Source of the DNA: Pecten maximus
Lineage: Eukaryota
NCBI RefSeq assembly: GCF_902652985.1
Contig: NC_047022.1
Coordinates: 22,754,001 to 22,818,000, forward strand
Direction of reading: 5' to 3'
Length of the DNA stretch: 64,000 nucleotides
Position 1 is the stretch's first letter; every line of letters starts with the position of its first letter. Position numbers and translations under genes: made by a program. This document shows, in pieces, positions 13,942-61,618 of this stretch. The notes beneath the pieces are model-generated. The model had not been told where the DNA came from. It did no database searches and saw nothing but the letters and a program-made list of their open reading frames with translations.

Positions 13942-14054
13942 CTTAGAGTGATGAGCTGAGGGGCTGCTGCTGGGCTGTTGGTCGGCTGTGGGGATGTATG
14001 GCACAATTTGGGGAGGAACCCCAGAGTCTTATATACATTTTCTTACGGAAATCT
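13942..14054 (-). promoter_or_regulatory. Gene A core promoter and non-coding exon 1
   Basis: Minus strand AGATTTCCGT-AAGAAAA-TGTATATAAG (14054-14028), C-rich exon, donor AAG|GTAAGT at 13942/13941. Confidence 0.75.
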
Positions 14055-17000
14055 CGACACCATTCACGCAGACCGCAATCATGTAAGAACGAAACAAATA
14101 CACGGGTCACTGACGTGATACCTTTGATGAAAAGGTAATAAAGTTTTTAATTAGTCCCAACAAACATTGTATAAGACATGTACGAACAATAAAGGAAATG
14201 TCATGGAGAGGTGTTGACTATGGAAGAAGGGTTAGAGTCACTGGTAAGGTGTGTAGATGATGAGGTCACGGGCAGGGTTCCTAGGTAACTGATCGGTCGG
14301 TCACTCATAAATTACATTGATACTAACAGCTAGTAACGGGCTCTCTTTTTTTTATCCTTATAACATATGTCCTCATTTTTATTTCTAAATGTTTCTGACT
14401 CTGAAATTTTAACACATTTCTCATAAAACAAATTGAACAATAAATGTATAAAACATTTGAAAGAACATTCGTAGATTATTGATATTGTATTAATGTCTCT
14501 TTACAATGTTTCCAAAAACCGACCCTTCTCAAAACTGACCACCTCTTGATAACGACCGATTTACAGAATCGATCCTTCTTTATTATAGTAATAAAAAAAA
14601 CTTCACAATATCAATCCCTCTGGATTCCGAATACCGAACCGAATTTTGTGACCAGAATGGTTGAAATAGACCCCAAATTAATTCTGTAAACTGACCGTGA
14701 AATCAACGCTTGTGACGATTGTTTTGTCTTTGTGCAAACGCGTATAGTAGGTAAATTGGTACATAACACCTACGACAAAAGGAGCATTATGATCTAATTG
14801 TGTACTAATCAAAACGAACAAGACGAAATCATGTAAATGTCATTGGACATAGCAATGCCTTGCTGACATAATGGATTTTGAAGTCTCTCAATGCTTGCGA
14901 AGAAGATATAAGACACATATATTTAATTTGAACAAGTAAGCCGGTAAGCATGTATCGAAGCTATTAGAGAACGTTAAACAGAAGACAAACCAGCGAATAG
15001 GACGTTTTTATTGTTATTACTAACAAATAAGTGTATGCCGGATAATACATAACAACAAAACAAAATGGTACACTGATGTACAAATGTATCCATGTTTTCC
15101 TTACGACACCGAACTTCAGTTGACTGATGTGTTCAGGATGGTACTCAGCTTATGCTAGGCATCAAATATTTTATTTTCTCGGCTATAGTTGATATGTCAA
15201 AAGAGGTTAATATTGTACAGGTGTCTGGAGCGTTTTAATATGAATTTTGAGATAGGTGCAGTGTGCCGTAAATTATGTCGACAAGTTTGGCAAGTTGCAT
15301 TGTCAAAATACGGTGGTTTTATTTTGGTTGTGTTCAAATTTGGCGTTTCCATCACACCGGTGCCAATTTTTGGCAACACTGGTTCCCGTTGCATTTTATA
15401 TACTACAAAATATGATATAGAACTGCATCGTACAATTGGATTTTCCTCCTCGTCATTAGTGGCCAAACGTATAGAAGCCATTAGGGAAGTAAGGTAAACA
15501 GTGAAATTAGGGAAAGACAGGCGTAATAACTCCAGGATTCTATCAGTTTGGATTTGGGTATTGGATCTTGGCATTAACGTGTGAGTTTACATTCAGAACA
15601 TGTGTCACTATCCATACGAACTTATCGAAAGATACGTGTACGTATAATGATATCATTAAGAGACTACTAACTCATTTGTCCTAGTTACTTTGTCGTTGTA
15701 AGGACCAATATCAAAATGTCGTGTTTTCTGATAAAATTCATCAACAGCAACAGATAAAACAACAGAGAAAATAATAGAGAACATTTATTATTGCAATTGT
15801 TTTTGGACTCATGTTTCAGAGAATGTGCCCGATGATTCCGTTATTATCAGCTCAGATTGAAAACATGATATTACCTTAATTTTCACTAGATTTACATAGC
15901 GACTGCCTTTGAAGCAAATGCCGCTTACCCTTACGGAACATATAATATCACCCTCGTACTTTTTAAAGAGTTTTTTTGTTTAAATATATTTTGTACATAC
16001 TCTGCCTTCGTTTTTGAATTACGGGTTCGTTTTTGTTCTTCACATTTTGTTGTTGTTTGGTGTTGCGTCATTAAAAAATTTTTTTTGAAATAGTTGTATT
16101 TAAGATAAATTCATCTGAATAATATGTTAATCTTCTGCCTTATTAACAAACTTAAAATGCTGATAAGAAAATAATCGTCATGCATTTCAGGAGTTTCTAT
16201 ATACCGTTTTCACAATTTATTTCAGTGATAATTACTTTCAGTATTTGATTGCAATTACCTTATAGAATATAGAAAAACGTATATTTATAGTTGTTTATGA
16301 AGTTATTCTAGTAAAAAGAAAACTGGCAAACTTAATAGCTGGTCAACATAACCGAGGCCATTCAGATACCACTTTACAATGCGAATACTTTGATAATTGG
16401 ATAGTGGGGAAAATGTCATAACTACTTTTCCGGTTCAAGATGTCAAAAGGATATGCATGAAATTATACGACTTTTCGATAATTTTTTAACATAATATAAC
16501 CCTTTACATTTGGCCAAGTTAACCAGACTTAGGAAACATGTAACACGCCACTATTACTCATATTACTCGCTATGTATAATATGTTAGATGTGTCCTACAT
16601 ATCCAATACATGTCCTTCTTGGTGATAGCAAGATTGTATGGAGATGAAAGCAACACTAACACACATCACTCAGGTTTTTGTACAGTCAGCAGAAATGTAC
16701 ACGTACAGTTTTTGATATGTTCTACTTAATAATTGTAGATAAAGATATATAGACATAAAATATCTTTAATATCAGACAAACTTCTTTTTCACCAGGAATT
16801 GGGTTAAAATCCTTAGTAATATGTATATAGAAAGCTATAGATATGTATAGAGGGATATTTATTAAAAGATGTGATACAAATAAACAGATATTTTCTGATA
16901 TATCGGAATATTCAAACAAAACAGTCCATGAACAAATTAAAGTGGAACGCGTAAATAAATAACTTAAAAAAAGAAAAAAAAAAAACAACAACAACCAAAC

Positions 17001-19477: not shown

Positions 19478-22400
19478 CGATATAAAGTCAGGTGCTTGTT
19501 GATATCTATTTCCTTATGCGATATGGAGTCAGATGTTTGTTTATATCTATTTCCTGATGTGATATAAAGTCAGATGTTTGTTGATATCTATTTCCTTATG
19601 CGATATAAAGTCAGATGTTTGTTGATATTCTATTTCCTTATGTGATATAAAGTTAAATACTTGTTGATATCCTATTTCCTTATGCGATATAAAGTCAGAT
19701 GCTTGTTGATATTCTATTCCTTATGTGATATAAAGTCAGATGTTTGTTGATATCCTATTTCCTTATGTGATGTTAAGTCAGATGTTTGTTGACATTCTAT
19801 TTCCTTGTAAGATATAAAGTCAGATGTTTGTTGATATTTATTTCCTTATGTGATATAAAGTCAGATGTTTGTTGATATCTATTTCCTTATGTGATATTAA
19901 GTCAGATGTTTGTTGATATCTATTTCCTTATGTGATATGAAGTTATATGCTTGTTGATATCTATTTCCTTATGTGATATGAAGTCAGATACTTGTTGATA
20001 TCTATTTCCTTATGCGATATAAAGTCAGATGTTTGTTTATATTCTATTTCCTTATGCGATATAAAGTCAGGTGCTTGTTGATATCTATTTCCTTATGTGA
20101 TATAAAGTCAGGTGCTTGTTGATATCTATTTCCTTATGTGATATAAAGTCAGATGTTTGTTGATATCTATTTCCTTATGCGATATGAAGTCAGATGTTTG
20201 TTGATATTCTATTACCTTATGTGATATAAAGTCAGATGTTTGTTGATATCTATTTCCTTATGTGATATAAAGTAAGATGTTTGTTGATATTCTATTTCCT
20301 TATGCGATATAAAGTCAGATGTTTGTTGACATTCTATTTACTTATGTGATATAAAGTCAGATGTTTGTTGACATTCTATTTCCTTATGCGATATAAAGTC
20401 AGATGTTTGTTGACATTCTATTTCCTTATGTGATATAAAGTCAGATGTTTGTTGATATCTATTTCCTTATGCGATATAAAGTCAGATGTTTGTTGACATT
20501 CTATTTCCTTATGCGATATAAAGTCAGATGTTTGTTGATATCTATTTCCTTATGCGATATAAAGTCAGGTGCTTGTTGATATCTATTTCCTTATGTGATA
20601 TAAAGTCAGATGTTTGTTGATATCTATTTCCTTATGCGATATGAAGTCAGATGTTTGTTGATATTCTATTACCTTATGCGATATGAAGTGAGATACTTGT
20701 TGATATCTATTTCCTTATGTGATATAAAGTCAGATGTTTGTTGATATCTATTTCCTTATGCGATATAAAGTCAGATGTTTGTTGACATTCTATTTCCTTA
20801 TGCGATATAAAGTCAGATGTTTGTTGATATCTATTTCCTTATGCGATATAAAGTCAGGTGCTTGTTGATATCTATTTCCTTATGTGATATAAAGTCAGAT
20901 GTTTGTTGATATCTATTTCCTTATGCGATATGAAGTCAGATGTTTGTTGATATTCTATTACCTTATGTGATATAAAGTCAGATGTTTGTTGATATCTATT
21001 TCCTTATGTGATATAAAGTAAGCTGTTTGTTGATATTCTATTTCCTTATGCGATATAAAGTCAGATGTTTGTTGACATTCTATTTACTTATGTGATATAA
21101 AGTCAGATGTTTGTTGATATCTATTTCCTTATGCGATATGAAGTCAGATGTTTGTTGATATCTATTTCCTTATGTGATATAAAGTCAGATGTTTGTTGAT
21201 ATCTATTTCCTTATGCGATATAAAGTCAGATGTTTGTTGACATTCTATTTCCTTATGCGATATAAAGTCAGATGTTTGTTGATATCTATTTCCTTATGCG
21301 ATATAAAGTCAGATGTTTGTTGATATTCTATTTCCTTATGTGATATAAAGTTAAATACTTGTTGATATCCTATTTCCTTATGCGATATAAAGTCAGATGC
21401 TTGTTGATATTCTATTTCCTTATGTGATATAAAGTCAGATGTTTGTTGATATCCTATTTCCTTATGTGATATTAAGTCAGATGTTTGTTGACATTCTATT
21501 TCCTTGTAAGATATAAAGTCAGATGTTTGTTGATATTTATTTCCTTATGTGATATAAAGTCAGATGTTTGTTGATATCTATTTCCTTATGTGATATAAAG
21601 TCAGATGTTTGTTGATATCTATTTCCTTATGTGATATTAAGTCAGATGTTTGTTGACATTCTATTTACTTATGAGATATAAAGTCAGATGCTTGTTGACA
21701 TTCTATTTCCTTATGTGATATGAAGTCAGATGTTTGTTGATATCTATTTCCTTATGCGATATAAAGTCAGATGTTTGTTGATATTCTATTTCCTTATGTG
21801 ATATAAAGTTAAATACTTGTTGATATCCTATTTCCTTATGCGATATAAAGTCAGATGCTTGTTGATATTCTATTCCTTATGTGATATAAAGTCAGATGTT
21901 TGTTGATATCCTATTTCCTTATGTGATGTTAAGTCAGATGTTTGTTGACATTCTATTTCCTTGTAAGATATAAAGTCAGATGTTTGTTGATATTTATTTC
22001 CTTATGTGATATAAAGTCAGATGTTTGTTGATATCTATTTCCTTATGTGATATTAAGTCAGATGTTTGTTGACATTCTATTTACTTATGAGATATAAAGT
22101 AAGATGTTTGTTGATATTCTATTTCCTTATGTGATATAAAGTCAGATGTTTGTTGATATTCTATTTACTTATGAGATATGAAGTAAGATGTTTGTTGATA
22201 TCTATTTACTTATGAGATATAAAGTCAGATGCTTGTTGACATTCTATTTCCTTATGTGATATGAAGTCAGATGTTTGTTGATATCTATTTCCTTGTAAGA
22301 TATAAAGTCAGATGTTTGTTGATATTCTATTTCCTTATGCGATATAAAGCCAGGTGCTTGTTGATATTCTATTTCCTTATGTGATATGAAATCATATGTT

Positions 22401-22820
22401 TGTTTATATATATTTACTTATGTGATATAAAGTCATATGTTTGTTGATATCTATTTCCTTATACGATATAAAGTCAGATGCTTGTTGATATCTATTTCCT
22501 TATGCGATATGAAGTCAGATGTTTGTTGATATCTATTTCCTTATGCGATATGAAGTCAGATGTTTGTTGATATCTATTTCCTTATGCGATATGAAGTCAG
22601 ATGTTTGTTGATATCTATTTCCTTATGTGATATAAAGTCAGATGTTTGTTGATATCTATTTCCTTATGCGATATAAAGTCAGATGTTTGTTGATATCTAT
22701 TTCATTATGTGATATAAAGTCAGATGTTTGTTGATATCTATTTACTTATGCGATATGAAGTTAAATACTTGTTTATATCTATTTCCTTATGCGATATAAA
22801 GTCAGATGTTTGTTGATATG
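19478..22820. repeat. 41/42-bp satellite array, ~80 copies
   Basis: Unit GATATAAAGTCAGATGTTTGTTGATATCTATTTCCTTATGY; begins ~240 bp downstream of the gene B polyA signal. Confidence 0.96.
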
Positions 22821-23113: not shown

Positions 23114-24601
23114 TTAGTATCCTGAAACATAATGGTTGTACATGGATTAGTAATTAGAAATACTATACACATAAACGTCAGAACTATCCCTAGATATTTG
23201 AGATAAAGAAATACTAATTGTAGACAGCCCTTATCAATACATGAGGTTGAGGAAGCCCAATGTTTTATGCATTCGGTAGCTAGGTAAAGTATATCAAAAT
23301 GTAATGTTGTATTCGAAATACTTCACGATTTCTTTTAATATGATAAATACTTGAGTGATATCGAAGTCTTGCCAGCATGCAATTTTGCTACATATATCTA
23401 TTTTTAATGTGGAATGAACTTTTCAAAGATGTAGGGATAACTGCTTCTTGAATGCATGCTTAGTGAAATATGTACACGAAAATTTTAACTCTTTGTGAAA
23501 TAAGACCATATATAAAAATGACATATTTACCTTTTCCTCCAAATCCACCTTGGCCGCCCATTCCTCCGCCCATTCCTCCGCCCATTCCTCCAAAACCTCC
23601 ATTACCACCGCCCATTCCTCCGAAGCCACCTTTTCCACCGCCCATTCCTCCGAAGCCACCCTGGCCTCCCATTCCACCGCCGTTCATTCCACCGCCGTTC
23701 ATTCCTCCGCCGTTCATTCCTCCGAATCCTCCTTGGCCTCCCATTCCACCTCCCATTCCTCCGAAGCCACCTTTTCCTCCTCCCATTCCTCCGAAGCCAC
23801 CCTGGCCTCCCATTCCGCCGCCCATTCCTCCGAATCCACCCATTCCTCCGAATCCACCTTTACCCCCGCCCATTCCTCCGCCCATACCTCCGGCTCCGCC
23901 TCCGTTCATTCCTCCGCCCATACCTCCGGCTCCGCCTCCGTTCATTCCTCCTCCCATTCCAGTACCGCCCATACTTCCGGCACCGCCTCCATACCCTGTG
24001 AAATACAGATAAACAGATGTATTAATCAATAGATGTTACATATTAATTATGATACTTTTTAATGATGTGGCGTAAGTGGTATGGTCAATGCTTTACATCA
24101 GAACAGATTGATTTTTCATATTCATATTGCTTTAGCACAAGAAACATCTTTATTTGAAAACATTTACGACCAACTTTGTTTGCAAGAGTTTTTCTTGTGT
24201 TATATGTCCAACTACGTTCCCATAGCAGTGCAAATTCCTTTTCGACAAGGGATCGAGGGATATTACTAGTCAGACTCGATTACATGCCCTAGTGCCATTT
24301 CTCTCCGCTAGGCTGCGCTGATGAAGATAAATATCAGATCGCAGCCAAGCGGAAAGTAGAAACACCTCGACTGACTACCCAGTATATGTTACAAGTTTGT
24401 ACTTCCATATTGAATTCGTATATATAGAGCTTCGCGTCATACCTATGCTTAATTTAAGAAAGAAGAAAGAAACGGATTCATCACGACTGTTCAGGACATA
24501 TATGTTCAGGACAGTACAGTTTAGGACACAGATGTTTAGGACAAACCTGCAGCACTGACGGCGGCAACAAGACAAACGGCAAGACAGATGTAGGTGTTCA
24601 T
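23114..24601 (-). CDS. Gene B: canonical abductin (scallop hinge-ligament elastomer), 175 aa, 3 coding exons
   Basis: Exons 24601-24547 (MNTYICLAVCLVAAVSAA), 23995-23531 (GYGGGAGSMGGTGMGGGMN...GGFGGMGGG repeats...GGQGGFGGK), 23121-23114 (GY stop); 528 nt; ATTAAA at 23062-23057. Matches my recollection of Argopecten abductin (MNAYICLAACLIAAVSAAGYGGGAGSMGGTGG...GGQGGFGGKGY). Confidence 0.93.
24268..24377. mobile_element. Small palindromic MITE-like insert in intron 2 of gene B
   Basis: Ends TAGTCAGACTCGA / TCGACTGACTA with an internal GC-rich hairpin TCCGCT-A-GGCTGCG-CTGAT...ATCAG-AT-CGCAGCC-A-AGCGGA. Confidence 0.5.
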
Positions 24602-25392
24602 CTTGAGGATGATCTGTGGACAAATAAATCAATAAACTCAATACATTTGATGGTTTTATTCTATTTTAGCATACTTAAAGTTTAGCATAAAGCCGAATTT
24701 ATTAACAGATTAGCACAATGATGAATTACGCTCACAGTACTAGCTGTTGAAAACTATATACCGAAATATCGCAATCATAATTTATCGGGAAATGTTTTCA
24801 GCGCAAATTGCGCGAAAATAAGGTAACCGCTAAAATATGTTCACTTACAGTACTGTAAGAAGTTCAAGAAACCTAACAATTGTATCTTCCAGATAGCTAT
24901 TGTTTTTTGTAGACAGAACTATCTAGACTCTACAGTTTAAGCTTTTTGTGAAGTTTAGCACTACATGTTGCCTAGAGGCTGATTTATAATTGTTTTCCAT
25001 ACATATACTGTACTGGAATTTGAAATGGTGAATCATAAAAATGGCGACATTAAGTAAAACGTTTAACAAATTTAGTTACGTCACTTCGTTTTGCTGCATT
25101 CTATATATTGTTTAGAATAAATGTCATGTTGCTGTAGGAAATACGTGTGAAATCTTGAAGAATATACTAGCTTATGCTAAAGCTTAATATAGATACTGTA
25201 TAAATCGTCATTTCGTTCTTGATGTAACCACTATACTACTAGCATACGCCTAAATCTCATGTGTATGAACACATCAGAACAAATATGAACTTAAAAGATG
25301 ATACTAAAGAATATCAGGGTATCTGAGGAGACTAAGTTGTCATTAGCCCTTACTAAGTTATACATATAGGAACACCGAAGAAGTAAGCTTAC

Positions 25393-25500
25393 CTGGTAGA
25401 TCAGGAGAGGATATCAGCTGGTGGTTGAAGGTTCTAGGAAGCTGTGGTGATTTCTAACCTGTTAGATAGCCACTATTTATACAGTTTGTAACGGAAATCT
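25393..25500 (-). promoter_or_regulatory. Gene B core promoter and non-coding exon 1
   Basis: Minus strand AGATTTCCGT-TACAAAC-TGTATAAATAG (25500-25473); donor CAG|GTAAGC at 25393/25392. Confidence 0.78.
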
Positions 25501-26494
25501 GGTCACCACAAATATGTAAGAGAAACACATCATCGATTGATAACATAATTTACATCCTTTTAAAATCGTCGCATTTTGTTTTAACTTCTTTAATGTCGAC
25601 ATTGGAATCTGTTAAGATGTCTATATTACATGTTAACTGCACGTGTAAACACAGCACGTACCTGAGAATGTGCACTGCGCTTTGAAGATGTCGATTGCAT
25701 TGGCTTGTTTTCTGTACGTGCTAGTTTAGTGTTATCGAGGATAAACACAATGTAGGGCTGACTTTGAATTCACAGTGTTAAAGAATAAAGGAGGCACGTG
25801 TTTTGCAAATTTTAAAGTGATTATTTTTAGGTTGTTGATTTTTGTTGTTGTTGTTGTCGTAAAAGTTCAATAATACGTTCAATTTTTTGTATTATTTTAG
25901 TATTTTTCATTTCTTTACACTTATAATATACTCCAGGGACGGATAGCATTTTGTTACTATTCTCAACTTAGATCTTTTCATTGCAAGACATCATTTTGAT
26001 ATTTAAATTCAATTTATGCATGGTTATCTATTAGTTTCCAAACTATCCAAAACACTACTCTCAAATTTACTATTATGTCTAAAAGAATATTTTTTGTTTA
26101 TTAAAAACAACAAAGATTACAGACATAACAATGGAACCATAATTCGTGGATAAGGCTATATAATCAGGGGATATACTTAATTTCAAATAATTTTCGTCCG
26201 TGTGTCTTCTGCTTGGGACACATTGAAAGACAATAGTTCTCGAAAGCCTGTTAAATAATGTACATGTAGTTGAATCGGTGATATAGAATTTGTATTTATA
26301 AAAATTACCCAAGTTTCAATTCAGTTGTATTTTACGTAAAACCTATTTCTGATATAAAAAAAACTTCAGATCTATCGAATTGTTTTAATTTGGAATAACA
26401 TTTACAAGTTATTGTATAAAAGATATTTTAAAAGTATGACTCTTGTGATATAGTTGAAGAAACGTGACTCGGTATTATAATAGGTTTAGTAGGG

Positions 26495-28172
26495 GTAGAG
26501 TCGTAGGTAAAGTAGTAGGTAAAGTAGTAGATAAAGTATTAGGTAAAGCAGTAGGTAAAGTAGCAGATAAAGTAGAAGATAAAATGGTAGGTAAAGTATT
26601 AGGTAAAGTAGTAGGTAAAATAATAGGTAAAGTAGAGGTAGAGTAGTAGGTAAAGTAGTAGGTAAAGTAAAGGTAACTTAGTAGGTAAAGTAGTAGGTAA
26701 AGTAATAGGTAAAGTAGAGGTAGAGTAGTAGGTAATGTAGCAGGTAAAGTAGTAGGTAAAGTAGAAGTAAAGTAGTAGGTAAATATGGTAGGTAAAGTAG
26801 AGGTAAAAGTAGTAGGTAGAGTAGTAGGTAAAGTAGTAGGTAAAGTAGTAGGTAAAGTAGAGGTAAAGTAGTAGGTAAAGTAGAGGTAAAGTAGTAGGTA
26901 AAGTAGAGGTAAAGTAGAGGTAAAGTAGAGGTAAAGTAGTAGGTAAAGTAGAGGTAGAGTAGTAGGTAAAGTAGTAGGTAAAGTAGTAGGTAAAGTAGAA
27001 GTAAAGTAGTAGGTAAAGTAGTAGGTAAAGTAGTAGGTAAAGTAGTAGGTAAATAATAGGTAAAGTAGTAGGTAAAGTAGTAGGTAAAATAATAGGTAAA
27101 GTAGTAGGTAAAATAATAGGTAAAGTAGTAGGTAAAGTAGTAGGTAAAGTAGTAGGTAAAGTAAAGGTAACTTAGTAGGTAAAGTAGTAGGTAAAGTAAT
27201 AGGTAAAGTAGAGGTAGAGTAGTAGGTAATGTAGCAGGTAAAGTAGTAGGTAAAGTAGTAGGTAAAGTAAAGGTAACTTAGTAGGTAAAGTAGTAGGTAA
27301 AGTAATAGGTAAAGTAGAGGTAGAGTAGTAGGTAATGTAGCAGGTAAAGTAGTAGGTAAAGTAGAAGTAAAGTAGTAGGTAAAGTGGTAGGTAAAGTAGA
27401 GGTAAAGTAGTAGGTAAAGTAATAGGTAAAGTAGAGGTAGAGTAGTAGGTAATGTAGCAGGTAAAGTAGTAGGTAAAGTAGAAGTAAATTAGTAGGTAAA
27501 GTAGAGGTAAAGTAGCAGGTAAAGTAGTAGGTAAAGTAGAGGTAAAGTAGAGGTAAAGTAGTAGGTAAAGTAATAGGTAAAGTAGAGGTAGAGTAGTAGG
27601 TAATGTAGTAGGTAAAGTAGTAGGTAAAGTAGAAGTAAAGTAGTAGGTAAAGTAGAGGTAAAGTAGCAGGTAAAGTAGTAGGTAAAGTAGTAGGTAAAGT
27701 AGTAGGTAAAGTAGTAGGTTAAGTAGTAGGTAAAGTAGTAGAGGTAAAGTAGTAGGTAAAGTAGTAGGTAAAGTAGAGGTAAAGTAGAGGTAAAGTAGTA
27801 GGTAAAGAAGAAGGTAAAGTAGTAGAGGTAAATTAGAAGATAAAGTAGTAGGTAAAGTAGAAGTAAAGTAGTAGGTAAAGTAGAGGTAAAGTAGCAGGTA
27901 AAGTAGTAGGTAAAGTAGTAGGTAAAGTAGTAGGTAAAGTAGTAGGTTAAGTAGCAGGTAAAGTAGTAGAGGTAAATTAGAAGATAAAGTAGTAGGTAAA
28001 GTAGAGGTAAAGTAGAGATAAAGTAGTAGGTAAAGTAGAGTTAAAGTAGTAATTAAGTAGTAGGTAGAGTAGTAGGTAAAGTAGTAGGTAAAGTAGTAGG
28101 TAAAGTAGTAGGTAAAGTAGTAGGTAAAGTAGTAGGTAAAGTAGAGTTAAAGTAGTAATTAAGTAGTAGGTA
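26495..28172. repeat. 1.7-kb AGTAGTAGGTAA (12-mer) / AGTAGAGGTAA (11-mer) simple-repeat array
   Basis: Direct reading; the plus strand has almost no C; lies between the divergent promoters of B and C. Confidence 0.96.
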
Positions 28173-29407
28173 GCTCTTTTTTATTATAATAGATCCATTT
28201 ATGTATCATTATAGCAGAATATACTATTTTGCCTGTTAATGTTCTTAAGATGCCATGAAAATGTAATAAAACTAGTTATACCTGAATGCTATCTCTTTGA
28301 GATGATGGATGACTATAACATACACATATATATACATTTATAAGAAACTTTGATGTTATTACAAGCATTTCACGTCCGGTAGTGACATTAGAAACAGAAG
28401 ACAACAAAACAGGGAGAACAGACAGATAAGAAGGAAAATTCACAAAAAATGTTTTTTATGCTTTCTTTATACCAGGGACATACATTGTTTGTACGTCCCT
28501 GTTTATACCATGTAAAATATATGATGTGCTGATTAATTTAGGAGATTGCTGAGTTTGCATATGTATACTTGTATTATGGAAAGGACATTGGTTAGTTGTG
28601 ATAACTTTCGTCCGACGAACCATTGTTTAAAGTTTATGCAATAAAATTGATTTAAATTTTTTATTTAAATTATAAATATGAACAAATTATGCGAGAGGAC
28701 ATTTGGACTTTTGTCAAAAAGAAAAAAAAGGAAAAAAAGATATTGAATACTGAATACGGTATTTAATTCATGCGACACATTAAACTAAAAGCTAACCTAT
28801 TAATTTATCATGATTGTGCTCAAAACTCATGAATACATTTGATTTGAAATTTTATCCAGCAGTTAATATAGTCATATCAATTGAAGATGCTACTTCACCG
28901 ACAAATAACTATGATCACGTGAAAAAAAGAAAAGGTTGTTATATATTTTATACAATGTCACAAGTGACATGCTTTCTACTGTTACCACCATCCTACAATT
29001 AAATCTTCTTTTATCTTTTAATCAGCAATTCATTGTACTCAGAATTTTTTTTGCTATGCTTCTATATTTTGTAAGTAAGTACGGGTTATTCTTATAAGTA
29101 GTCATTATAACTATATTTTGCCGTTTTGTTGTATCAATTAGGTAAAATTATTCACGCTGTGTTCCATTCTATTTGTTTAGAATAAGATGTAATAGACGGT
29201 CATTAATGTCAAAACGAGGTAACGATGGCCACATTAGGGAAACTAATGGGTTTAACGACCGTCTTGTACATGTGGCTGCTGTTAGATAAAAGTTTGAGCT
29301 AGGCCATTTATAGAAACTGTGACTATTTAGTGTTCAATACAGGGAAATGTGGATGTTTTACAGTTGTGCATGATCTGACCTTGCTATTTCAATGACCCTG
29401 CATTTAC

Positions 29408-29503
29408 AGACTTCCGTCTCGCACTGTATAAATAGAAGTTGTATCCATTCATTCACCGCACCACGTCTCCAGTTACTCACCCTTTGTCTTCTCGTCCAGT
29501 CCG
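29408..29503 (+). promoter_or_regulatory. Gene C core promoter and non-coding exon 1
   Basis: AGACTTCCGT-CTCGCAC-TGTATAAATAG (29408-29435), Inr-like CATTC, donor CCG|GTGAGT at 29503/29504. Confidence 0.8.
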
Positions 29504-30587
29504 GTGAGTGTTTATATTGGTCTTCGTTCGTTGTCTTACTACAACGTATAGATGATGTTTAATAAGCAAAAAGCTGATAGAATATTATTATTGCAATTAT
29601 ATGGAATCATGGACAGGGTATGGCAGCCATATATTGCCGCTTTGTCCATATTCGATTTATCTTGTGTCCAGAATATTTTATAGACAGAATAAACATAAAC
29701 AGAAAGAACTGATTCAAGATTGGTTTTCGTATGCACGTAAAATTGTATATTTAAACGTTGTTAAATCGAATTTTACGGCACCCGTGAAAATAATTTTTCA
29801 TGACCAAAATCCGTTATATATATATATACAAATGTATATTTTTTCCATCTGGACTATGTTCCGACTCCGCCTTCTAACTAAGCCTTTATCAACACACAAT
29901 CACAGATATTGTACATGTTACAAAAACGTTGATAGACCATATAAATGTACATTTTTATACTTAATGAAAGTAATGTATTATCTTGGCGTGTTTTAATATG
30001 TTTTTTTTTCTTAATATGACGCGACATGCTTCTGAACATTATTTATAGTTTAGCACAGAAATTCATGCAGTTTTATGACACATTTAAGAGTAGTTTATTA
30101 TTTAATGAAACAATCCAAATATCTTGAGACAACGAAGGAAAGTAACCATGGAAATGATATGTTCTGCAGTAGTTGGGTTGAACATCTTGCACATTGTAGT
30201 GGATTTTTTTTGAACTATATTTTAACATTTTTTGAAGACAGTGCTTTCGTCTATATCTGGTTAACTATGTATGTACTACGTAAACATGAAATACTAATTG
30301 AATTAACCTGAATTTTACGCTTCAGTGATTTGTTCAAGATAATTATAATGGTGACAGACGTTCGAATTCAGAAATATTTTTCATTTTTTGTTTTGTTTCA
30401 TTATGTGAAATACTAACATGTGGAGCTAAATTGATGGTGCTTTCAGAAATTAGCATGATATCCATGCAGTACTCGATTAGGTATTGTGTATTATGATTAA
30501 ACTAGAAGAAACGTCCTGATATTTTTTTATTGATATCAACATCAATATCATATGAAGTGCCGTCTCCATTTCAGAAGAAACCCCACA

Positions 30588-32455
30588 ATGAACACCTACA
30601 TCTGTCTGGCTTCATGCCTTTTGGTGGCCGTAAGCGCTGCAGGTAAATCGTGCAATACAGCAAACCGAACCTAATATCATCTTTTTAACATTATTTGAAA
30701 CATATTCTTATATCAATGAATTACTAGTAACTCACTTTGAAGAATTCATGGATTATCTTTAAGACTTAGCGATTGTAAATGTCAATGCACAAATATTTTT
30801 GACAGTACAAATAACATATATGACTGTGTTGCTCGAACTGTACGGCGGAGAGTTCTCATCTAGAATTGGCTATGTACCCATGTATACTATACTTATCTGT
30901 AAGTTTACCAACACTCCGTATCCTGAGCTGATTGTCAAAACGGAAGTGATTTTGGGATCTTTTGTTTTTCTCGGGTTTGTGGTTAAGAATTATGTACAGA
31001 CATTATGTATACCTACATGACATATAAGTTTATTGTACCTGTGTAATCTAATACGTGTATCTTTGACAGGTTATGGAAGTGGATCCGGAAATGGATTTGG
31101 TAATGGCGGCGGAAATGGATTCGGAAACGGAAACGGTTACGGAAACGGCAATGGCGCCGGAAATGGAGGATCTGGATTTGGACGTGAGTGTGAATTGAAT
31201 AGATTGCAGAAGTGAATAATATGTTTTGTGAAGAATAACATATCGTAAGATCGATAAACTAGTATATATATTTAAAGATATGTTTATGTTAGTGAATGCT
31301 TCAGCCGATATTATAAGTAACAGAATTTGCATATCACACTTGAAGCTACCTGGGTATCTAACAAGATGTATGGTATCTATATTATATTATATTTATTGTA
31401 TTAATATATATTAATCTATATTTTGTTTATGAGAATTTAGATTTACCCTGATCGGATTGAATTTTGAAGTTGAATTGAAGTTTAAAACAAGTTTTTTGTA
31501 CAAATTATCAAAAAATATCAACGCTAATTTTGTTCTTTTATTTCAGGATATAGAAGAGCAGGTGGGTATCAACGATTTTCATGTCGTTTGTTTCCTTTTG
31601 TCGATTGAAATTAGGTTTTCCCTATATGTAATTATAGATATGATATCATTATGTGTCAAAATCAAGAACCTTCTGATCGAAGTTTGTACTTAGAATTAAC
31701 AAATGACTCCACTGAAATGAAGGTTATAGTAGCATATTACTGTTGAAACTATTGTTCAATGATACATACGATATCAGCTCATTTATCTACTATCAATATA
31801 AATGTTTACCCTAGGATACGGAGGTGGTGCCGGAAGTATGGGCGGAGGATTTGGTGGCTCTGGAATGGGAGGAAAAGGTGGATTCGGAGGAATGAACGGC
31901 GGCGGATTCGGAGGAATGAACGGCGGTGGAATGGGAGGAATAAACGGCGGTGGAATGGGAGGAATGAACGGCGGTGGAATGGGAGGAATGAACGGCGGTG
32001 GAATGGGAGGCAAAGGAGGATTCGGAGGGATGAACGGCGGTGGATTCGGAGGAATGAACGGAGGCGGATTCGGAGGAATGAACGGCGGTGGAATGGGAAG
32101 CAAAGGAGGATTCGGAGGAATGAACGGCGGTGGATTCGGAGGAATGAACGGAGGCGGATTCGGAGGAATGGGCGGTGGAATGGGAGGTGGAATGGGCGGT
32201 GGAAAAGGTAGTTACATAATTGTCGGTTTTTTATTATCCACGTTTGGCGTTTCTACCGGTTCTATTATATGAAATAGTTATGATATTATTTAATTATACT
32301 ATTTTTAATAATACTTCGATATTATATTATTCATGATGATCAATTGCAGCTTTACGTGCTTTGATTATTTTGTAAATGATAAAACGCACATATTATACTT
32401 GACTTGTGTATTGAATTCTAACCAGGTATGCCTTGTTTTACTTCCAGGATATTAG
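30588..32455 (+). CDS. Gene C: pro-abductin-like precursor, 194 aa, 5 coding exons
   Basis: Exons 30588-30642 (MNTYICLASCLLVAVSAA), 31070-31183 (Gly-Asn peptide), 31547-31561 (RYRRA microexon), 31815-32207 (GYGGGAGSMGGGFGG...GGFGGMNGGG...GGK), 32448-32455 (GY stop); 585 nt; all introns phase 1 GT-AG; AATAAA 32505-32510. Confidence 0.9.
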
Positions 32456-35573: not shown

Positions 35574-35592
35574 TTATTGATATGAGAGAAAC

Positions 35593-40775: not shown

Positions 40776-40871
40776 AGACTTCCGTCTCGCACTGTATAAA
40801 TAGAAGTTGTATCCATTCATTCACCGCACCACGTCTCCAGTTACTCACCCTTTGTCTTCTCGTCCAGTCCG
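40776..40871 (+). promoter_or_regulatory. Gene D core promoter and non-coding exon 1
   Basis: AGACTTCCGT-CTCGCAC-TGTATAAATAG; donor at 40871/40872. Confidence 0.8.
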
Positions 40872-41840
40872 GTGAGTGTTTATATTGGTCTTCGTTCGTT
40901 GTCTTACTACAACATATAAATGATGTTTAATTAACAAAAAGCTTATTAGAATATTATTATTGCAATTATATGGAATCATCGACAGGGTATGGCAGCCATA
41001 TATTGCCGCTTTGTCCATATTCGATTTATCTTGTGTCCATAATATTTTATATATATATATTTTTAATTTTTCCATCTGGACTATGTTCCGATCCCGCCTT
41101 CTAACTAGGCCTATGTCAACACACAATCACAGATATTGTACATGTTACAAAAACGGTGATAGATTCGTTTTAAGAACAAATCAGACCACATAAATGTACA
41201 TTTTTTATACTTGATGAAAGTAATCTATTATCTTGGCGTGTTTTAATATGTTTTTTTTTCTTAATATGACGCGACATGCTTCTGAACATTATTTATAGTT
41301 TAGCACAGAAATTCATGCAGTTTTATGACACATTTCAGAGTAGTTTATTATTTAATGAAACAATCAAAATATCTTGAGACAACGAAGGAAAGTAACCATG
41401 GAAATTATATGTTCTGCAGTAGTTGGGATTGAACGGTCTGCACATTGTAGTGGATTTTTTTTATTTGAACTATATTTTACCATTTTTTGAAGACAGTGCT
41501 TTCGTCTATATCTGGTTTACTATGTATGTACTACGTAAACATGAAATACTAATTGAATTAACCTGAATTTTACGCTTCAGTGATTTGTTCAAGATAATTA
41601 TAATGGTGACAGACGTTCGGATTCAGAAATATTTTTCATTTTTTGTTTTGTTTCATTATGTGAAATACTAACATGTGGAGCTAAATTGATGGTGCTTTCA
41701 GAAATGAGCATGATATCCAGTACTCGATTAGGTATTGTTGTTTATTATGATTTAACTAGAAGAAACGTCCTGATATTTTTATTGATATCAACATCTTATA
41801 TCATATGAAGTGCGGTCTCCATTTCAGAAGAAACCCCACA

Positions 41841-43650
41841 ATGAACACCTACATCTGTCTGGCTTCATGCCTTTTGGTGGCCGTAAGCGCTGCAGGTAAA
41901 TCGTGCAATACAGAAAACCGAACCTAATATCAATCTTTTTAACATTATTTGAAACATATTCTTATATCAATGTATTACTAGTAACTCACTTTGAAGAATT
42001 CATGAATTATCATTAAGACTTAGCGATTGTAAATGTCAATGCACAAATATTTTTGACAGTACAAATAACATATATGACTGTGTTGCTCGAACTGTACGGC
42101 GGAGAGTTCTCATCTAGAATTGGCTATGGACCCATGTATACTATACTATACTTATCTGTAAGTTTACCAATACTCCGTATCATGAGCTGATTGTGAAAAC
42201 GGAAGTGATTTTGGGATCTTTTGTTTTTCTCGGGTTTGTGGTTAAGAATTATCTACAGATATTATGTATACCTACATGACATATAAGTTTATTGTACATG
42301 TGTAATCTAATACGTGTATCTTTGACAGGTTATGGAAGTGGATCCGGAAATGGATTTGGTAATGGCGGCGGAAATGGATTCGGAAACGGAAACGGTTACG
42401 GAAACGGTAATGGCGCCGGAAATGGAGGATTTGGATTTGGACGTGAGTGTGAATTGAATAGATTGCAGAAGTGAATAATATGTTTTGTGAATAATAACAT
42501 ATCGTAAGATTGATAAACTAGTATATATATTTAAAGATATGTTTATGTTAGTGAATGCTTCAGCCGATATTATAAGTAACATAATTTGCATATCACACTT
42601 GAAGCTACTTGGGTATCTAACAAGACATTTCCTTGACATTTTTAAGGGTTTTTGAGATTAATCTATATTTGGTTTTTGAGAATTTAGATTTACCCTGATC
42701 GGATTGAATTTTGAAGTTGAATTGAAGTTTAAAAAAAAGGTTTTGGTGCAAATTATCAAAAAATATCAACGCTAATTTTGTTCTTTTATTTCAGGATATA
42801 GAAGAGCAGGTGGGTATCAACGATTTTCATGTCGTTTGTTTCCTTTTGTCGATTGAAATGAGTTTTTCCCTATATGTAATTATAGATATGATATTATTAT
42901 GTGTCAAAATCAAGAACCTTCTGATCGAAGTGTGTACTTAGAATTAACAAATGACTCCACTGAAATGAAGGTTATAGTAGTATATTACTGTTGAAACTAT
43001 TGTTCAATGATACATACGATATCAGCTCATTTATCTACTATCAATATAAATGTTTACCCTAGGATACGGAGGTGGTGCCGGAAGTATGGGCGGAGGATTT
43101 GGTGGCTCTGGAATGGGAGGAAAAGGTGGATTCGGAGGAATGAACGGCGGTGGATTCGGAGGAATGAACGGCGGTGGAATGGGAGGAATGAACGGCGGTG
43201 GAATGGGAGGCAAAGGAGGATTCGGAGGAATGAACGGCGGTGGATTCGGAGGAATGAACGGAGGCGGATTCGGAGGAATGAACGGCGGTGGAATGGGAGG
43301 CAAAGGAGGATTCGGAGGAATGAACGGCGGTGGATTCGGAGGAATGAACGGAGGCGGATTCGGAGGAATGAACGGCGGTGGAATGGGAGGTGGAATGGGC
43401 GGTGGAAAAGGTAGTTACATAATTGTCGGTTTTTTTATTATCCACGTTGGGCGTTTCTCCCGGTTCTATTATGAAATAGTTGTGATATTATTTAATTATA
43501 CTATTTTTAATAATACTTCGATATTATATTATTCATGATGATCAATTATCGTGCTTTGAACATTTTGTAAATGATAAAACGCACATATTATATTTGACTT
43601 GTGTATTGAATTCTAACCAGGTATGCCTTGTTTTACTTCCAGGATATTAG
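41841..43650 (+). CDS. Gene D: pro-abductin-like precursor, 179 aa
   Basis: Exons 41841-41895, 42329-42442, 42795-42809, 43063-43410, 43643-43650; 540 nt, intact frame and splice sites. Confidence 0.9.
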
Positions 43651-51121: not shown

Positions 51122-51217
51122 AGACTTCCGTCTCGCACTGTATAAATAGAAGTTGTATCCATTCATTCACCGCACCACGGCTCCAGTTACTCACCCTTTG
51201 TCTTCTCGTCCAGTCCG
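51122..51217 (+). promoter_or_regulatory. Gene E core promoter and non-coding exon 1
   Basis: AGACTTCCGT-CTCGCAC-TGTATAAATAG; donor at 51217/51218. Confidence 0.8.
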
Positions 51218-52331
51218 GTGAGTGTTTATATTGGTCTTCGTTCGTTGTCTTACTACAACGTACAAATGATGTTTAATTAACAAAAAGCTTATTAGAATAT
51301 TATTATTGCAATTATATGGAATCATGGACAGGGTATGGCAGCCATATATTGCCGCTTTGTCCATATTCGATTTATCTTGTGTCCAGCCAGAATATTTTAT
51401 AGATAGAATTATAATAAACAGAAAGAACTAATTCAAGATTGTTTTTCGCATGCACGTAAAATGATATAGTTAAACGTTGTTAAATCGAATTTTACGGCAC
51501 CCGTGAAAATAATTTTCCATGACCAAAATCCGTTATATATATATATATATTTTTTTAATTTTTCCATCTGGACTATGTTCCGACCCCGCCTTCTAACTAG
51601 GCCTATATCAACACACAATCACATATATTGTACATGTTACAAAAACGGTGATAGATTCATTTTAAGAACAAATCAGACCATATAAATGTACATTTTTTAT
51701 ACTTAATGAAAGTAATCTATTATCTTGGCGTGTTTTAATATTTTTTTTGTCTTAATATGACGCGACATGCTTCTGAACACTATTTATAGTTTAGCACAGA
51801 AATTGATGCAGTTTTATGACACATTTCAGAGTAGTATATTATTTAATGAAACAATCAAAATATCTTGAGACAACGAAGGAAAGTAACCATGGAAATAATA
51901 TGTTCTGCAGTAGTTGGGATTGAACGGTCTGCACATTGTAGTGGATTTTTTTTATTTGAACTATATTTTACCTTTTTTTGAAGACAGTGCTTTCGTCTAT
52001 ATCTGGTTTACTATGTATGTACTACGTAAACATGAAATAGTAATTGAATTAACCTGAATTTTACGCTTCAGTGATTTGTTCAAGATAATTATAATGGTGA
52101 CAGACGTTCGGATTCAGAAATATTTTACATTTTTTGTTTTGTTTCATTATGTGAAATACTAACATGTGGAGCTAAATTGATGGTGCTTTCAGAAATGAGC
52201 ATGATATCCAGTACTCGATTAGGTATTGTTGTGTATTATGATTTAACTAGAAGAAACGTCCTGATATTTTTATTGATATCAACATCTTATATCATATGAA
52301 GTGCGGTCTCCATTTCAGAAGAAACCCCACA

Positions 52332-54190
52332 ATGAACACCTACATCTGTCTGGCTTCATGCCTTTTGGTGGCCGTGAGCGCTGCAGGTAAATCGTGCAAT
52401 ACAGCAAACCGAACCTAATATCAATCTTTTTAACATTATTTGAAACATATTCTTATATCAATGTATTACTAGTAACTCACTTTGAAGAATTCATGAATTA
52501 TCATTAAGACTTAGCGATTGTAAATGTCAATGCACAAATATTTTTGACAGTACAAATAACATATATGACTGTGTTGCTCGAACTGTACGGCGGAGAGTTC
52601 TCATCTAGAATTGGCTATGGACCCATGTATACTATACTATACTTATCTGTAAGTTTACCAATACTCCGTATCATGAGCTGATTGTGAAAACGGAAGTGAT
52701 TTTGGGATCTTTTGTTTTTCTCGGGTTTGTGGTTAAGAATTATCTACAGATATTATGTATACCTACATGACATATCAGTTTATTGTACATGTGTAATCTA
52801 ATACGTGTATCTTTGACAGGTTATGGAAGTGGATCCGGAAATGGATTTGGTAATGGCGGCGGAAATGGATTCGGAAACGGAAACGGTTACGGAAACGGCA
52901 ATGGCGCCGGAAATGGAGGATTTGGATTTGGACGTGAGTGTGAATTGAATAGATTGCAGAAGTGAATAATATGTTTTGTGAAGAATAACATATCGTAAGA
53001 TCGATAAACTAGTATATATATTTAAAGATATGTTTATGTTAGTGAATGCTTCAGCCGATATTATAAGTAACAGAATTTGCATATCACACTTGAAGCTACC
53101 TGGGTATCTAACAAGATTTATGGTATATATATTATATTATATTTATTATATTAATATATATTAATCTATATTTTGTTTATGAGAATTTAGATTTACTCTG
53201 ATCGGATTGAATTTTGAAGTTGAATTGAAGTTTAAAAAAAGTTTTTGGTGCAAATTATCAAAAAATATCAACGCTAATTTTGTTCTTTTATTTCAGGATA
53301 TAGAAGAGCAGGTGGGTATCAACGATTTTCATGTCGTTTGTTTCCTTTTGTCGATTGAAATTAGTTTTTCCCTATATGTAATTATAGATATGATATTATT
53401 ATGTGTCAAAATCAAGAACCTTCTGATCGAAGTGTGTACTTAGAATTAACAAATGACTCCACTGAAATGAAGGTTATAGTAGTATATTACTGTTGAAACT
53501 ATTGTTCAATGATACATACGATATCAGCTCATTTATCTACTATCAATATAAATGTTTACCCTAGGATACGGAGGTGGTGCCGGAAGTATGGGCGGAGGAT
53601 TTGGTGGCTCTGGAATGGGAGGAAAAGGTGGATTCGGAGGAATGAACGGCGGAGGAATGAACGGCGGTGGATTCGGAGGAATGAACGGCGGTGGAATGGG
53701 AGGAATGAACGGCGGTGGAATGGGAGGAATGAACGGCGGTGGAATGGGAGGCAAAGGAGGATTCGGAGGAATGAACGGCGGAGGATTCGGAGGAATGAAC
53801 GGAGGCGGATTCGGAGGAATGAACGGCGGTGGAATGGGAGGCAAAGGAGGATTCGGAGGAATGAACGGCGGTGGATTCGGAGGAATGAACGGAGGCGGAT
53901 TCGGAGGAATGAACGGCGGTGGAATGGGAGGTGGAATGGGCGGTGGAAAAGGTAGTTACATAATTGTCGGTTTTTTATTATCCACGTTGGGCGTTTCTCC
54001 CGGTTCTATTATGAAATAGTTGTGATATGATTTAATTATACTATTTTTAATAATACTTCGATATTATATTATTCCTGATGATAAATTATCGTGCTTTGAA
54101 CATTTTGTAAATGATAAAACGCACTTATTATATTTGACTTGTGTATTGAATTCTAACCAGGTATGCCTTGTTTTGCTTCCAGGATATTAG
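52332..54190 (+). CDS. Gene E: pro-abductin-like precursor, 192 aa
   Basis: Exons 52332-52386, 52820-52933, 53297-53311, 53565-53951, 54183-54190; 579 nt, intact. Confidence 0.9.
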
Positions 54191-58733: not shown

Positions 58734-59171
58734 AACAAGTGCGATCAATGATTGCGAAAGTTCACCCGCGGTAGCAATCACACTATGCATTCATTTTTTA
58801 TGTATGTATAAGCATGTCATTTTGAAATTGTACATCGCATAATATCGCTTCTAGACCTCTAATGGATTATAAACCAAATAAGAAGGGTGTGGCTTTCCAA
58901 ATTTACCCCCAAAATCTTTAAAGAGGGTTTTTGTGAAAACAATTAAGTCAACTAAGTGGTAAAATGCCAAAAAAATCACAATTTTTTTTCTGCATGATTT
59001 TGCTATAACATTTCTTCTAGACTTCTAATATGTATAAATGTATAAACCAAATTAGAAGGGTGTGATGTGTATACTTTTTGACTTAGAGCTTTCCAAAAAC
59101 TGAAACCAAAAACTTTAAAGTGGGACGCCGACGCGTTAGCTCACGGTTACTCGTAACCGGTGAGCTAATAA
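58734..59171 (-). mobile_element. Helentron/HINE-like element, longer copy of 38369-38683
   Basis: Same termini and insertion site as the unit-1 copy, with an extra internal repeat. Confidence 0.65.
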
Positions 59172-61514
59172 AACAAATACATCATACAATGAACCTAGAC
59201 GTAAGCATGTATATTTGGCATATTGGCCGGTACTGATTCGTCACAGAGCGGTATAAACAATATGTCTTGGGTAACGTTTGAAGTGAACTAAAAATTTATG
59301 TCTATATCATCGTTACGAGATGAACGTTCACTTATATTTAAATGCTTTGTTAACATTGCTACTGAATGCATACATGGATTTTTGGTTTCAATGCCATTCT
59401 TTATAACTGACAAATTTACATATGTGATCTAAATAGATTCAAAATATCAAAATGGAATAACATGGAGTTTAATTGCGCGAATTCAATGACATTTAAAACC
59501 ACAGGACGATGTTTAGGTCACTAAGATCTTAATATGATTATATGGAATTTTGAATCAGAAAAGAAAATTTTAAAATTATTTGTAACATTTTGATTTAGAA
59601 TTTTTGTAACACCGACTAGCCATAACACGTCTTATAATGAGAGAAAACGATTTTTAACATCACCGGAGGCGACTGAAAGCAGGTGTTTTCTTCACGCCAG
59701 CTGTTTAGAGGGCCTTGATTAGACCAATGTTGATGTGCTGACCAATAGCAACTTTATTTGACACCAATGTTCTTTATATAATAGAGTTAAATACAGAAAT
59801 ATACTGTACACGTGAATGCATTGGTAGTTTGTAAATACAAAAATAAGACAATGGTAGCGCTAATCCTTCTGGTGTACCTGGGACGTCAGGTCTTATAATC
59901 CTTGAAAGTTCACAACGGTGTCAATGAAAACAACAGAGAATACCAACATAATAACGAAACCGTAACTCTGACTCAGAATCGATAAAACGGGGACAAAATA
60001 CTAACAAACATACATAGAATTATATTGAGGAGATTGGAATTGTACAAAAGTAACGACAATGTGTTCCGTTAAGGTAGGCGTCTTCAGCTTCATCGAAAAC
60101 AACCTCCATACGTCCGGGTAAAGCGACATTCTCAAAATGAGAACTAGGGAACAACGGTTGTTCATATTTTGTCCCTCGTTTTATTTCGAGTTAAAATGAC
60201 AGATCTGTTCTCATGTCATTATTCCCTTCTTGTGTCTGTATATATAACAAGTATACAGATTTGTATTATACATAAACATATTTGATTTATCGTGTTTAAG
60301 AGTTTTATAACATCTATAATATTACGCCAAGTATTATTTTTTTATTTTAATCTATTAATATAAAATGAGTATTTATTCATTTGCTATATGTGTATCCTTT
60401 CGATGATTATTTTAAGTAAATTTACCTTTTTGTAATCTATGTGTGATATTACGCAAGTGGGTGTAATTAGGAGTAAATATTAACTATTGTTTTATATAAA
60501 TACTAATTCCTGAAAAAACACAATTAAACAATTTTGATATACTAGTTGAAACATTGCCCAAATGTGATGATAGTAGTAGATACAGGAATCGAGTTTGATG
60601 TTATTCATTTTTAATAACCTGGCATAAATTTGGAATATAGCGCTAGGCTAAAGTAAAGTATGATTATATACATAATTGTAGAAATGTTAATATAAATAGG
60701 GATGATTGATTATATTTCATTTCAGTAAAGTATGATCATATTGTGTTTTATGTATCATTTGATGTTTTTAAATTGATCATAAACAGATAATAAAATAGTT
60801 ACACAATTTTCTTTGCAAATTAAAATTGTATGTAAAATAACTCATTGTTATTAAATATTGTGATGATTGGAAGCATTTCAATATACATGGTGAAATGATA
60901 TAAACGTATTTTTTTTTATTTGACTAAACATTCTAGCAACAGCCAAGGTTATATGTGGACGGTTGCCATGGAGCTAACAACTGATGAAACCAAATTACAA
61001 GAATTGAGAATGCCTGAAAGAAATGATAGATAGAGGCTCTAAAATTGATAATGTATCGTAATGCAGAATGAGTGGTATTTGAAAACAATAAAATATACAG
61101 TTATTCTCTATTAAGATTTTTTGCGTTGTTATTTTGAAGTTCATACAGTTTAATTAAGCGATATCACATTTTTGTTACCACTTTTTTGTAAAAATGAATT
61201 AAGCTAAGTATGAAAATATTTTAAACGGTTTCAAATTAAGTTGTGCATTTAGTTTTAATAATAGTACGAATAATCATATCAATATAAGTAGGACGTAAGA
61301 AATGGACATTAATCTTCAAAAAGAGGTTACAATAGACACAGCAGAGACATTAATGGGTTTAACGATCGTCTTGTACATGTGACTGCTGTTAGATAAAAGT
61401 TAAAACTATATCATTTATAGAAACTGTGACTATTAAGTGCTCAATACAGGGAAATGTGGGTGTTTTACAGATGTGCATGATCTGACCTTGCTATTTCAAT
61501 GACCCTGCATTTGC

Positions 61515-61618
61515 AGACTTCCGTCTAAATTTGTATAAATAGAAGTTGTATCCATTCATTCATCGCACCACGTCTCCAGTTTCTCACCAATCGTCTTCTC
61601 GTCCAGTCCAACAAGCCG
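61515..61618 (+). promoter_or_regulatory. Gene F core promoter and non-coding exon 1
   Basis: AGACTTCCGT-CTAAATT-TGTATAAATAG; donor CCG|GTAAGC at 61618/61619. Confidence 0.8.

Follow-up and report, generated by a model that had tools for sequence, protein, structure and literature searches.

Tandem clusters of structural genes with shared proximal promoter elements are known from several systems, including the insect chorion genes (a TCACGT hexamer), the mammalian SPRR genes (ETS and AP-1 sites) and the histone H2B genes (an octamer). Here we analyse a comparable arrangement in Pecten maximus, where a promoter signature, AGAYTTCCGT-N7-TGTATAWA, heads six predicted abductin-like genes (A to F) within a 64,000-nucleotide (nt) stretch of DNA, referred to below as the window (NCBI RefSeq assembly GCF_902652985.1, contig NC_047022.1, positions 22,754,001 to 22,818,000, forward strand). 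As in the chorion, SPRR and H2B clusters, secreted or cross-linked low-complexity paralogs with a short non-coding exon 1 carry an activator word at a near-constant distance from the TATA box. Those systems, however, involve another factor or another phylum and have been tested by experiment, whereas the present one is known from sequence. An activator word beside the TATA box and common to paralogs is a familiar design; the abductin cluster is a new subject for it.

Human promoters bound by ETS1 or GABPA (PMC2787013 and PMC11160661) share with this locus the GGAA core, the A/C flanks, the RT on the 3' side and a position just upstream of the start. According to Table 2 of PMC2787013, aCGGAAGT is enriched 4-fold in ETS1-bound promoters, CaGGAAGT 10-fold and CCGGAAGT 33-fold, and on the same source ACGGAAGT is a weak but real ETS variant. 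In human, CCGGAAGT sites mark housekeeping promoters, whereas the sites considered here lack this high-affinity consensus and read ACGGAART, a weaker form; unlike those of human ETS promoters, they abut a strong TATA box, in one orientation, within a cluster of structural genes.

Abductin, the elastomer of the bay scallop hinge ligament, is Ala-rich at the N-terminus, where two Cys and two Tyr are found, and has GGFGGMGGGX repeats, about 58% Gly and about 1% Pro (PMC9999432). The mature length quoted there is 116 amino acids (aa), whereas Pecten maximus has a predicted 13-gene cluster of variant compositions, and the model of gene B is longer (175 aa). In the pearl oyster, the ligament is secreted by the mantle isthmus (PMC7591529). 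A search of the open-access literature found nothing on abductin promoters, an abductin gene cluster, ETS factors in ligament or shell genes, or ETS-TATA spacing; 31 papers there name abductin, and none of their titles concerns its genes or promoters. Pf-AP-1 is reportedly a regulator of the bivalve shell matrix. Pf-AP-1 and the oyster shell network of PMC12862220 resemble the present case in that factors act on promoters of mantle-secreted proteins; the main text of that paper, taken apart from its supplementary factor tables, contains neither 'ETS' nor 'ligament'.

The promoter signature and the genes it heads

The signature is real and is probably a functional ETS-type/TATA promoter belonging to a previously undescribed 13-gene cluster of abductin-like genes. 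The reading that we favour, with moderate confidence, is that the proximal promoter of this tandem cluster combines a TATA box with a GGAA-core site, likely descended from one ancestral promoter, likely maintained by selection and likely bound by an ETS-family activator. The original prediction had placed the signature in all six genes of the window. All six exact matches in the whole window were indeed recovered where expected, beginning at 14054 and 25500 on the minus strand and at 29408, 40776, 51122 and 61515 on the plus strand, and none of 100 dinucleotide shuffles contained a match. Each site lies 96-113 nt from the downstream GT donor that closes a non-coding exon 1. The elements are as follows.

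14045..14054 (-): gene A, ETS-type site AGATTTCCGT, GGAA core on the opposite strand (sequence, anchored alignment)
14028..14035 (-): gene A, TATA box TATATAAG, 15 nt after the first T of TTCC (sequence)
25491..25500 (-): gene B, ETS-type site AGATTTCCGT (sequence, anchored alignment)
25473..25481 (-): gene B, TATA box TATAAATAG (sequence)
29408..29417 (+): gene C, ETS-type site AGACTTCCGT (sequence)
29427..29435 (+): gene C, TATA box TATAAATAG (sequence)
40776..40803 (+): gene D, ETS-type site, 7-nt spacer and TATA box (sequence)
51122..51149 (+): gene E, ETS-type site, 7-nt spacer and TATA box (sequence)
61515..61542 (+): gene F, ETS-type site, spacer and TATA box; five of the seven spacer bases differ from gene C, the length being the same

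The TATA boxes conform to the core-promoter consensus TATAWAWR (TATATAAG in A, TATAAATA in B-F). Behind every site stands a gene model, predicted from the DNA, with a non-coding exon 1, a signal-peptide exon and Gly/Met-rich exons, all introns being GT..AG.

9539..13942 (-): gene A from the exon-1 donor; coding segments 12101-12044, 11612-11517, 11144-11133, 10745-10068 and 9552-9539 (model)
23114..25393 (-): gene B from the exon-1 donor; coding segments 24601-24547, 23995-23531 and 23121-23114 (model)
30575..32455 (+): gene C, exons 30575-30642 (ATG 30588), 31070-31183, 31547-31561, 31815-32207 and 32448-32455 (model)
41828..43650 (+): gene D, exons 2-6, ATG 41841, exon-1 donor after 40871 (model)
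52319..54190 (+): gene E, exons 2-6, ATG 52332, exon-1 donor after 51217 (model)
62376..63845 (+): gene F, exons 2-5, ATG 62390, last coding exon just beyond the window end (model)

Because exon layout and intron phase are common to all of these models, the predicted genes A-F are paralogs. They appear abductin-like by composition and repeat features. Gene B is the best abductin match: the mature part of its product has 67% Gly, 14% Met and 0% Pro with six GGFGGMGGG repeats, in agreement with the repeats, high Gly and near absence of Pro reviewed in PMC9999432. Genes C-F have a variant repeat, GGFGGMNGG (7-8 copies), and an extra Gly/Asn exon. The predicted secreted product of gene A, about 54% Gly and 29% Met in its mature part, has no Phe repeat and none of the GGFGGMGGG type. 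Genes B-E encode an Ala-rich signal peptide, with two Cys, two Tyr and 4-5 Ala among the first 20-21 aa; the N-terminus of A has one Cys and one Tyr.

That the signature stands in all six genes is true within the window, which turned out to hold only part of the cluster. In the flanks (100 kb upstream and 159 kb downstream of the window) there are seven further genes, G to M, all downstream, making a 13-gene cluster at C8:22,763,500-22,916,000, from 9.5 kb in the window to about 98 kb beyond its end. Genes G (C8:22,832,576) and K (22,876,933), located via their signal-peptide exons as out-of-sample genes, have ACTTCCGT-N7-GGTATAAATA with TTCC at 15, the same register as in A-F. In the Met/Pro/Lys-rich gene L (22,895,043), ACTTCCTG places TTCC 17 nt before TATA. 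Genes H, I and J carry ACTTCCTG at 35, 35 and 34, with a TGACGTCA word between it and the TATA-type box CATAAATAG; their proximal site has decayed to ATTTCCAT at 14, 14 and 13, one base off and 1-2 nt closer. The intact GGAA site of H-J stands 19-20 nt farther upstream than the decayed one, beside a cAMP response element (CRE)-like word. Altogether, the 15-nt geometry is kept in 8 of the 13 genes, and AYTTCCK in the same orientation occurs within 35 nt in 12 of the 13, the background rate of this word being 2.8e-4 per position.

The repeat chemistries of the cluster vary from GGFGGMGGG (B) and GGFGGMNGG (C-G) to Gly/Ser/Phe (H-J), GGPFGGMGG (K), Met/Pro/Lys/Gly (L) and Gly/Met (A, M), and might be of interest for elastomer design. 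A 12-21 nt micro-exon encoding Y-K/R-R-A is present in A and C-G (11133-11144, 31547-31561, 42795-42809, 53297-53311 and 63348-63368); it lies between two Gly-rich blocks, is spliced in, as seen in contigs, and is a possible processing or cross-link site.

Conservation, spacing and transcription

Since C-F are recent tandem copies, the six sites of the window are not independent. The tandem units measure 10.3-11.4 kb (starts 11,368, 10,346 and 10,393 nt apart), and the aligned blocks are 85-98% identical, in C, D and E over kilobases. As C, D and E carry one spacer, the six sites represent four spacer sequences and three lineages (A, B and C-F). Sharing within the window is explained by descent from one promoter and so does not count as evidence for a gene battery assembled independently. 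The further claim that the flanks of A, B and C do not align was essentially right (z <=1.7 for -100..-21 in A-B, A-C and B-C), with 6 of the 10 bases directly upstream of the site common to A and B. In a TATA-anchored alignment, 8 of the 10 columns of the site do not vary among A, B, C, F, G and K, and for A, B, C and K identity is 27-40 of 121 positions at -150..-30 and 1-4 of 7 in the spacer. Survival of the site where the flanks no longer align points to selection, which has likely kept it. The chance of finding the site in four unalignable lineages, computed post hoc, is about 7e-12.

The constant 7-nt spacer, in turn, holds in the six window genes but not across the family, and a fixed promoter geometry could not be upheld. 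The distance from TTCC to TATA is 15 nt in 8 of the 13 genes, 17 in L and 34-35 in H-J, with no site near M, and it is 16-18 or 24 in a separate family on C9 considered below. From TATA to the exon-1 donor the distance ranges over 68-94 nt. Where paralog DNA can be aligned, indels and substitutions stand at a measured ratio of 104 to 432, a figure that local alignment has probably inflated; at this ratio the probability of seeing no spacer indel across the saturated lineages is 0.003-0.02, and at a ratio of 0.1 it is 0.09-0.2. In gene F a 5-base spacer block has changed with its length kept (P 6e-5 if the changes were independent), and the only spacer indels adjoin the decayed H-J site (14, 14, 13); both observations agree with a constraint on spacer length. 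The evidence for spacing is nevertheless weaker than that for conservation of the site, and the best reading is a tolerant window of 15-18 nt rather than a rigid 7-nt rule.

As regards transcription, four sequencing runs were compared with gene C. One of them, X7, looks like DNA, and another, X10, which is only guessed to be RNA, yielded a 135-nt contig that defines the following feature.

29459..29503 (+): non-coding exon 1 of gene C, or of a near-identical D or E copy, spliced to 30575 (one 135-nt X10 contig)

In exon 1 the contig spans 29459-29502; from there it passes over the first intron (GT..AG) and runs on via exon 2 to exon 3. The 5' end of the contig lies 32 nt after the first T of TATA; the end of a contig does not map a start site, but the position is consistent with a functioning TATA box. 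In X11 and X12, which seem to be a single data set, exons 3-4-5 are joined and exon 1 is not.

TBP binds the minor groove of TATA, with TFIIA and TFIIB lying over the bases immediately upstream. At the abductin-like promoters TBP/TFIID would accordingly bind the TATA box and set the start about 30 nt downstream, while an ETS protein in the major groove, about 1.5 turns upstream of TBP and at the edge of the TFIIA/TFIIB area, would raise initiation in ligament-secreting cells. A site spanning -19 to -10 from TATA would place the ETS domain at the edge of the footprint. The distances seen (15, 16, 17, 18, 24, 34 and 35, none of an intact site below 15) would then reflect the nearest allowed position rather than a rigid contact. 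Direct ETS-TBP contact is reported for PU.1. Human data indicate that ETS motifs mainly affect the rate of initiation and that TATA sets its position (PMC11160661), which matches the division of labour proposed here.

The candidate factor and alternative readings

On the opposite strand the sites read ACGGAART (A-G, K), CAGGAAGT (H-J, L) and, in the C9 family, AAGGAAAT, CAGGAAAT or GAGGAAAT. The original prediction had pointed to an ETS-like factor from the GGAA core, and the wider set of sites fits such a reading: a GGA(A/T) core, an (A/C) 5' flank and an RT 3' flank are all present, and the lineage variants drift among known ETS flanks. The consensus VMGGAART fits 12 of 12 site types at 8 of 8 positions, a result that is partly circular, as the consensus was written with the sites in view. 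Affinity of Ciona Ets is modulated by the flanking bases (10.1101/098830). The genome has 19 ETS-domain matches; ETS domains are expected in any bilaterian. Three of these are grouped at C13:13.46-13.57 Mb and four at C10:6.21-6.39 Mb, possibly as lineage expansions.

Several points weigh against an ETS-bound, selected site. The G conserved at -18 (GGAARTC) is not known to be among the classic preferences of ETS factors, and the fit to VMGGAART has the circularity just described. ACGGAART is a weak variant, with 4-fold enrichment versus 33-fold for CCGGAAGT (PMC2787013). For most activator motifs of human promoters the orientation is not strict and the peak lies at 50-100 bp from the start (PMC11160661), so that a tight ETS-TATA link is not a general rule. 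Residual likeness between flanks (K to C, z 2.9; L to A, z 3.5) means that the lineages are not wholly independent. Gene M has no forward site within 40 nt of its tentatively placed TATA box, and a reversed CCGGAAGT lies at -127. Finally, the start site is supported by one contig from one of the four runs, in which C, D and E are not told apart.

The signature had also been proposed as a means of finding further members across the genome. In this role it failed, since AGA[CT]TTCCGT.{7}TGTATA matched six times in the window and nowhere else in 918 Mb. A near-exact form gave 8 matches versus 3 in the control, its one outside match being on C13 without a visible gene, and a relaxed motif gave 11 versus 12, with five outside, one of them at 7 nt. 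Further relaxed forms gave 14 versus 8, 52 versus 61 and 63 versus 89. For one pattern the reversed control (154) exceeded the real count (34), and the comparison was not used. Counted by locus, spacer lengths outside the clusters show no preferred value, the cluster spacing accounting for 4 of 46, and locus counts have no peak at 15-18 nt. None of 19 match sites screened had a Gly/Met-rich gene frame; the gene screens are crude, one having missed four of five C9 promoters included as known genes, and they covered part of the pattern matches, so that the rejected matches may include real genes. A metagenome scan for the 21-base motif gave 0 matches.

Candidates that were followed up and dropped include signal-peptide look-alikes on C5 (no secreted-protein gene), a C14 match seemingly linked to an abductin-like start (a repeat), and a four-copy match at C8:11.2 Mb, C4:20.01 Mb and others (no secreted-protein gene found).

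A looser pattern, AYTTCCKK-N5..11-GTATAAATA, gave 52 matches versus 44 in the control and exposed six copies on C9 near 16.1 Mb. These stand before the genes of another family, which code for small proteins predicted to be secreted and likewise have a non-coding exon 1. The region C9:15.89-16.12 Mb (15,893,000-16,118,000) contains 32 signal-peptide exons in tandem, for which 27 promoters were located; TTCC lies 16-18 nt before TATA in 23 of them, only at 24 in two, and is lacking in two. Three sub-lineages of this family do not align upstream with one another (z <=1.7). The proteins are Gly/Tyr-rich or Gly/Trp/Arg/Asp-rich with basic C-termini. A homologue search for one C9 exon found none, and atlas matches to keratin-associated proteins (0.81) were set aside as composition-level only.

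With AYTTCCK-N10..13-TATA-donor we obtained 30 matches versus 11 in controls. Of the 30, 17 fall in the two clusters; the other 13 are spread over 12 loci. One of these 12 loci, C9:37,643,865 (-), is a clear gene for a predicted secreted Pro/Val/Gly-rich protein. This gene has an acidic start, Pro/Val/Gly repeats, a matching promoter layout and a short GYKR-type exon as in gene A. With the site reversed there were 38 matches; at 30 of them 1.5 kb was examined, and the signal-peptide screen flagged two, which both read as repeats.

One may speculate, tentatively, that the combination is a genome-wide ETS-TATA address, that is, a cassette common to unrelated families of structural proteins secreted by the mantle, all under the control of a single factor. 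It is in the same way conceivable, if doubtful, that an ETS site 15-18 nt before TATA is a label for mantle-secreted structural proteins in scallops, shared by the 13-gene cluster, the unrelated 32-gene family and at least one further secreted-protein gene under one ETS terminal selector. In favour of the address are the excess over controls with 17 matches in two clusters, the 16-18 nt position in 23 of 27 C9 promoters across sub-lineages without upstream alignment, and the further secreted repetitive gene, set against the two repeats flagged with the reversed site. Yet the spacer histograms outside the clusters are flat, the distances differ (15 versus 16-18), and the patterns were loosened stepwise after matches had been seen. 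Two extra loci would arise by chance with P 0.05-0.31, assuming 300-1000 TATA promoters, and the C9 and abductin genes may share a remote ancestor. The address is compatible with the reading that we favour and extends it. If the second and third loci are co-regulated, the cassette could help to find shell and ligament proteins that are not yet known, and if the address is real, it would be the first cis-regulatory code for the bivalve hinge ligament.

Alternatively, and in our view improbably, the site might be functional and inherited but read by something other than ETS. Candidates are a protein with a Rel-homology domain (NFAT5/Rel type), one of the zinc-finger class, or a contact with a general factor such as TFIIA or TFIIB. 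All five C9 site types tested also fit NFAT WGGAAA at 6/6, so another factor could read the C9 sites; the conserved word extends to GAYTTCC, and the near-fixed TATA distance resembles that of a core-promoter element. Sites of the abductin cluster, however, fit WGGAAA at 4-5/6, NF-kB at 5-7/9 and Myb at 4-5/6, and the presence of the site at 24 and 34-35 nt would be unexpected for a general-factor contact. Over all 12 site types, NF-kB/Rel (GGGRNWYYCC, 5-7/9), Myb (3-5/6) and TEAD (4-5/6) were rejected as candidates. A functionless passenger word kept by recent duplication or gene conversion is very improbable and largely refuted, for although the recent copies C-F mean that four of the six sites add nothing, A, B, C and K share two 10-nt islands with a freely changing spacer between them and flanks at background identity, and conversion tracts would not skip the spacer.

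For the favoured combination of TATA box and ETS-bound site, the cluster offers a concrete site, a candidate factor family and a natural series of variants (15, 17, decayed with an upstream site at 34-35, absent), which makes the control of ligament secretion directly testable.

Other features of the locus

Additional words occur around the signature, among them the following.

29376..29397 (+): a pair of TGACC half-sites, at -51 and -34 in gene C (sequence), with counterparts upstream of F, G and K

Half-sites of the form TGACC(T/C)TG, one or two in number and at -34 to -53, are common to C-G and K. We take the TGACC word to be of nuclear-receptor type, and it is a possible second input of that kind. 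Just past the likely start, a CCA at TATA+34..+36 is conserved in A, B, C, F and G, often inside GCCAT or CACCAC, with related words in H-M.

Outside the cluster, C12:4,356,041 and 4,358,215 carry a duplicated ATTTCCGC..TATAAATAG site with a plausible exon 1 and donor, without an assigned gene. Within the cluster, gene M runs into an assembly gap, and broken pieces of a G-like paralog lie at C8:22,844,048 and 22,855,232 (+), between H and I and upstream of I, and these pieces could not be linked to a promoter. In the window, positions 1895-1930 (+) hold a promoter-like TGACGTCA followed by TGTATAAAAG, without an assigned gene or element. Long tandem arrays occupy 69-469, 7376-8305, 19479-22819 and 26494-28172 (49, 27, 41 and 12 bp units), and the last three adjoin or separate genes A, B and C.

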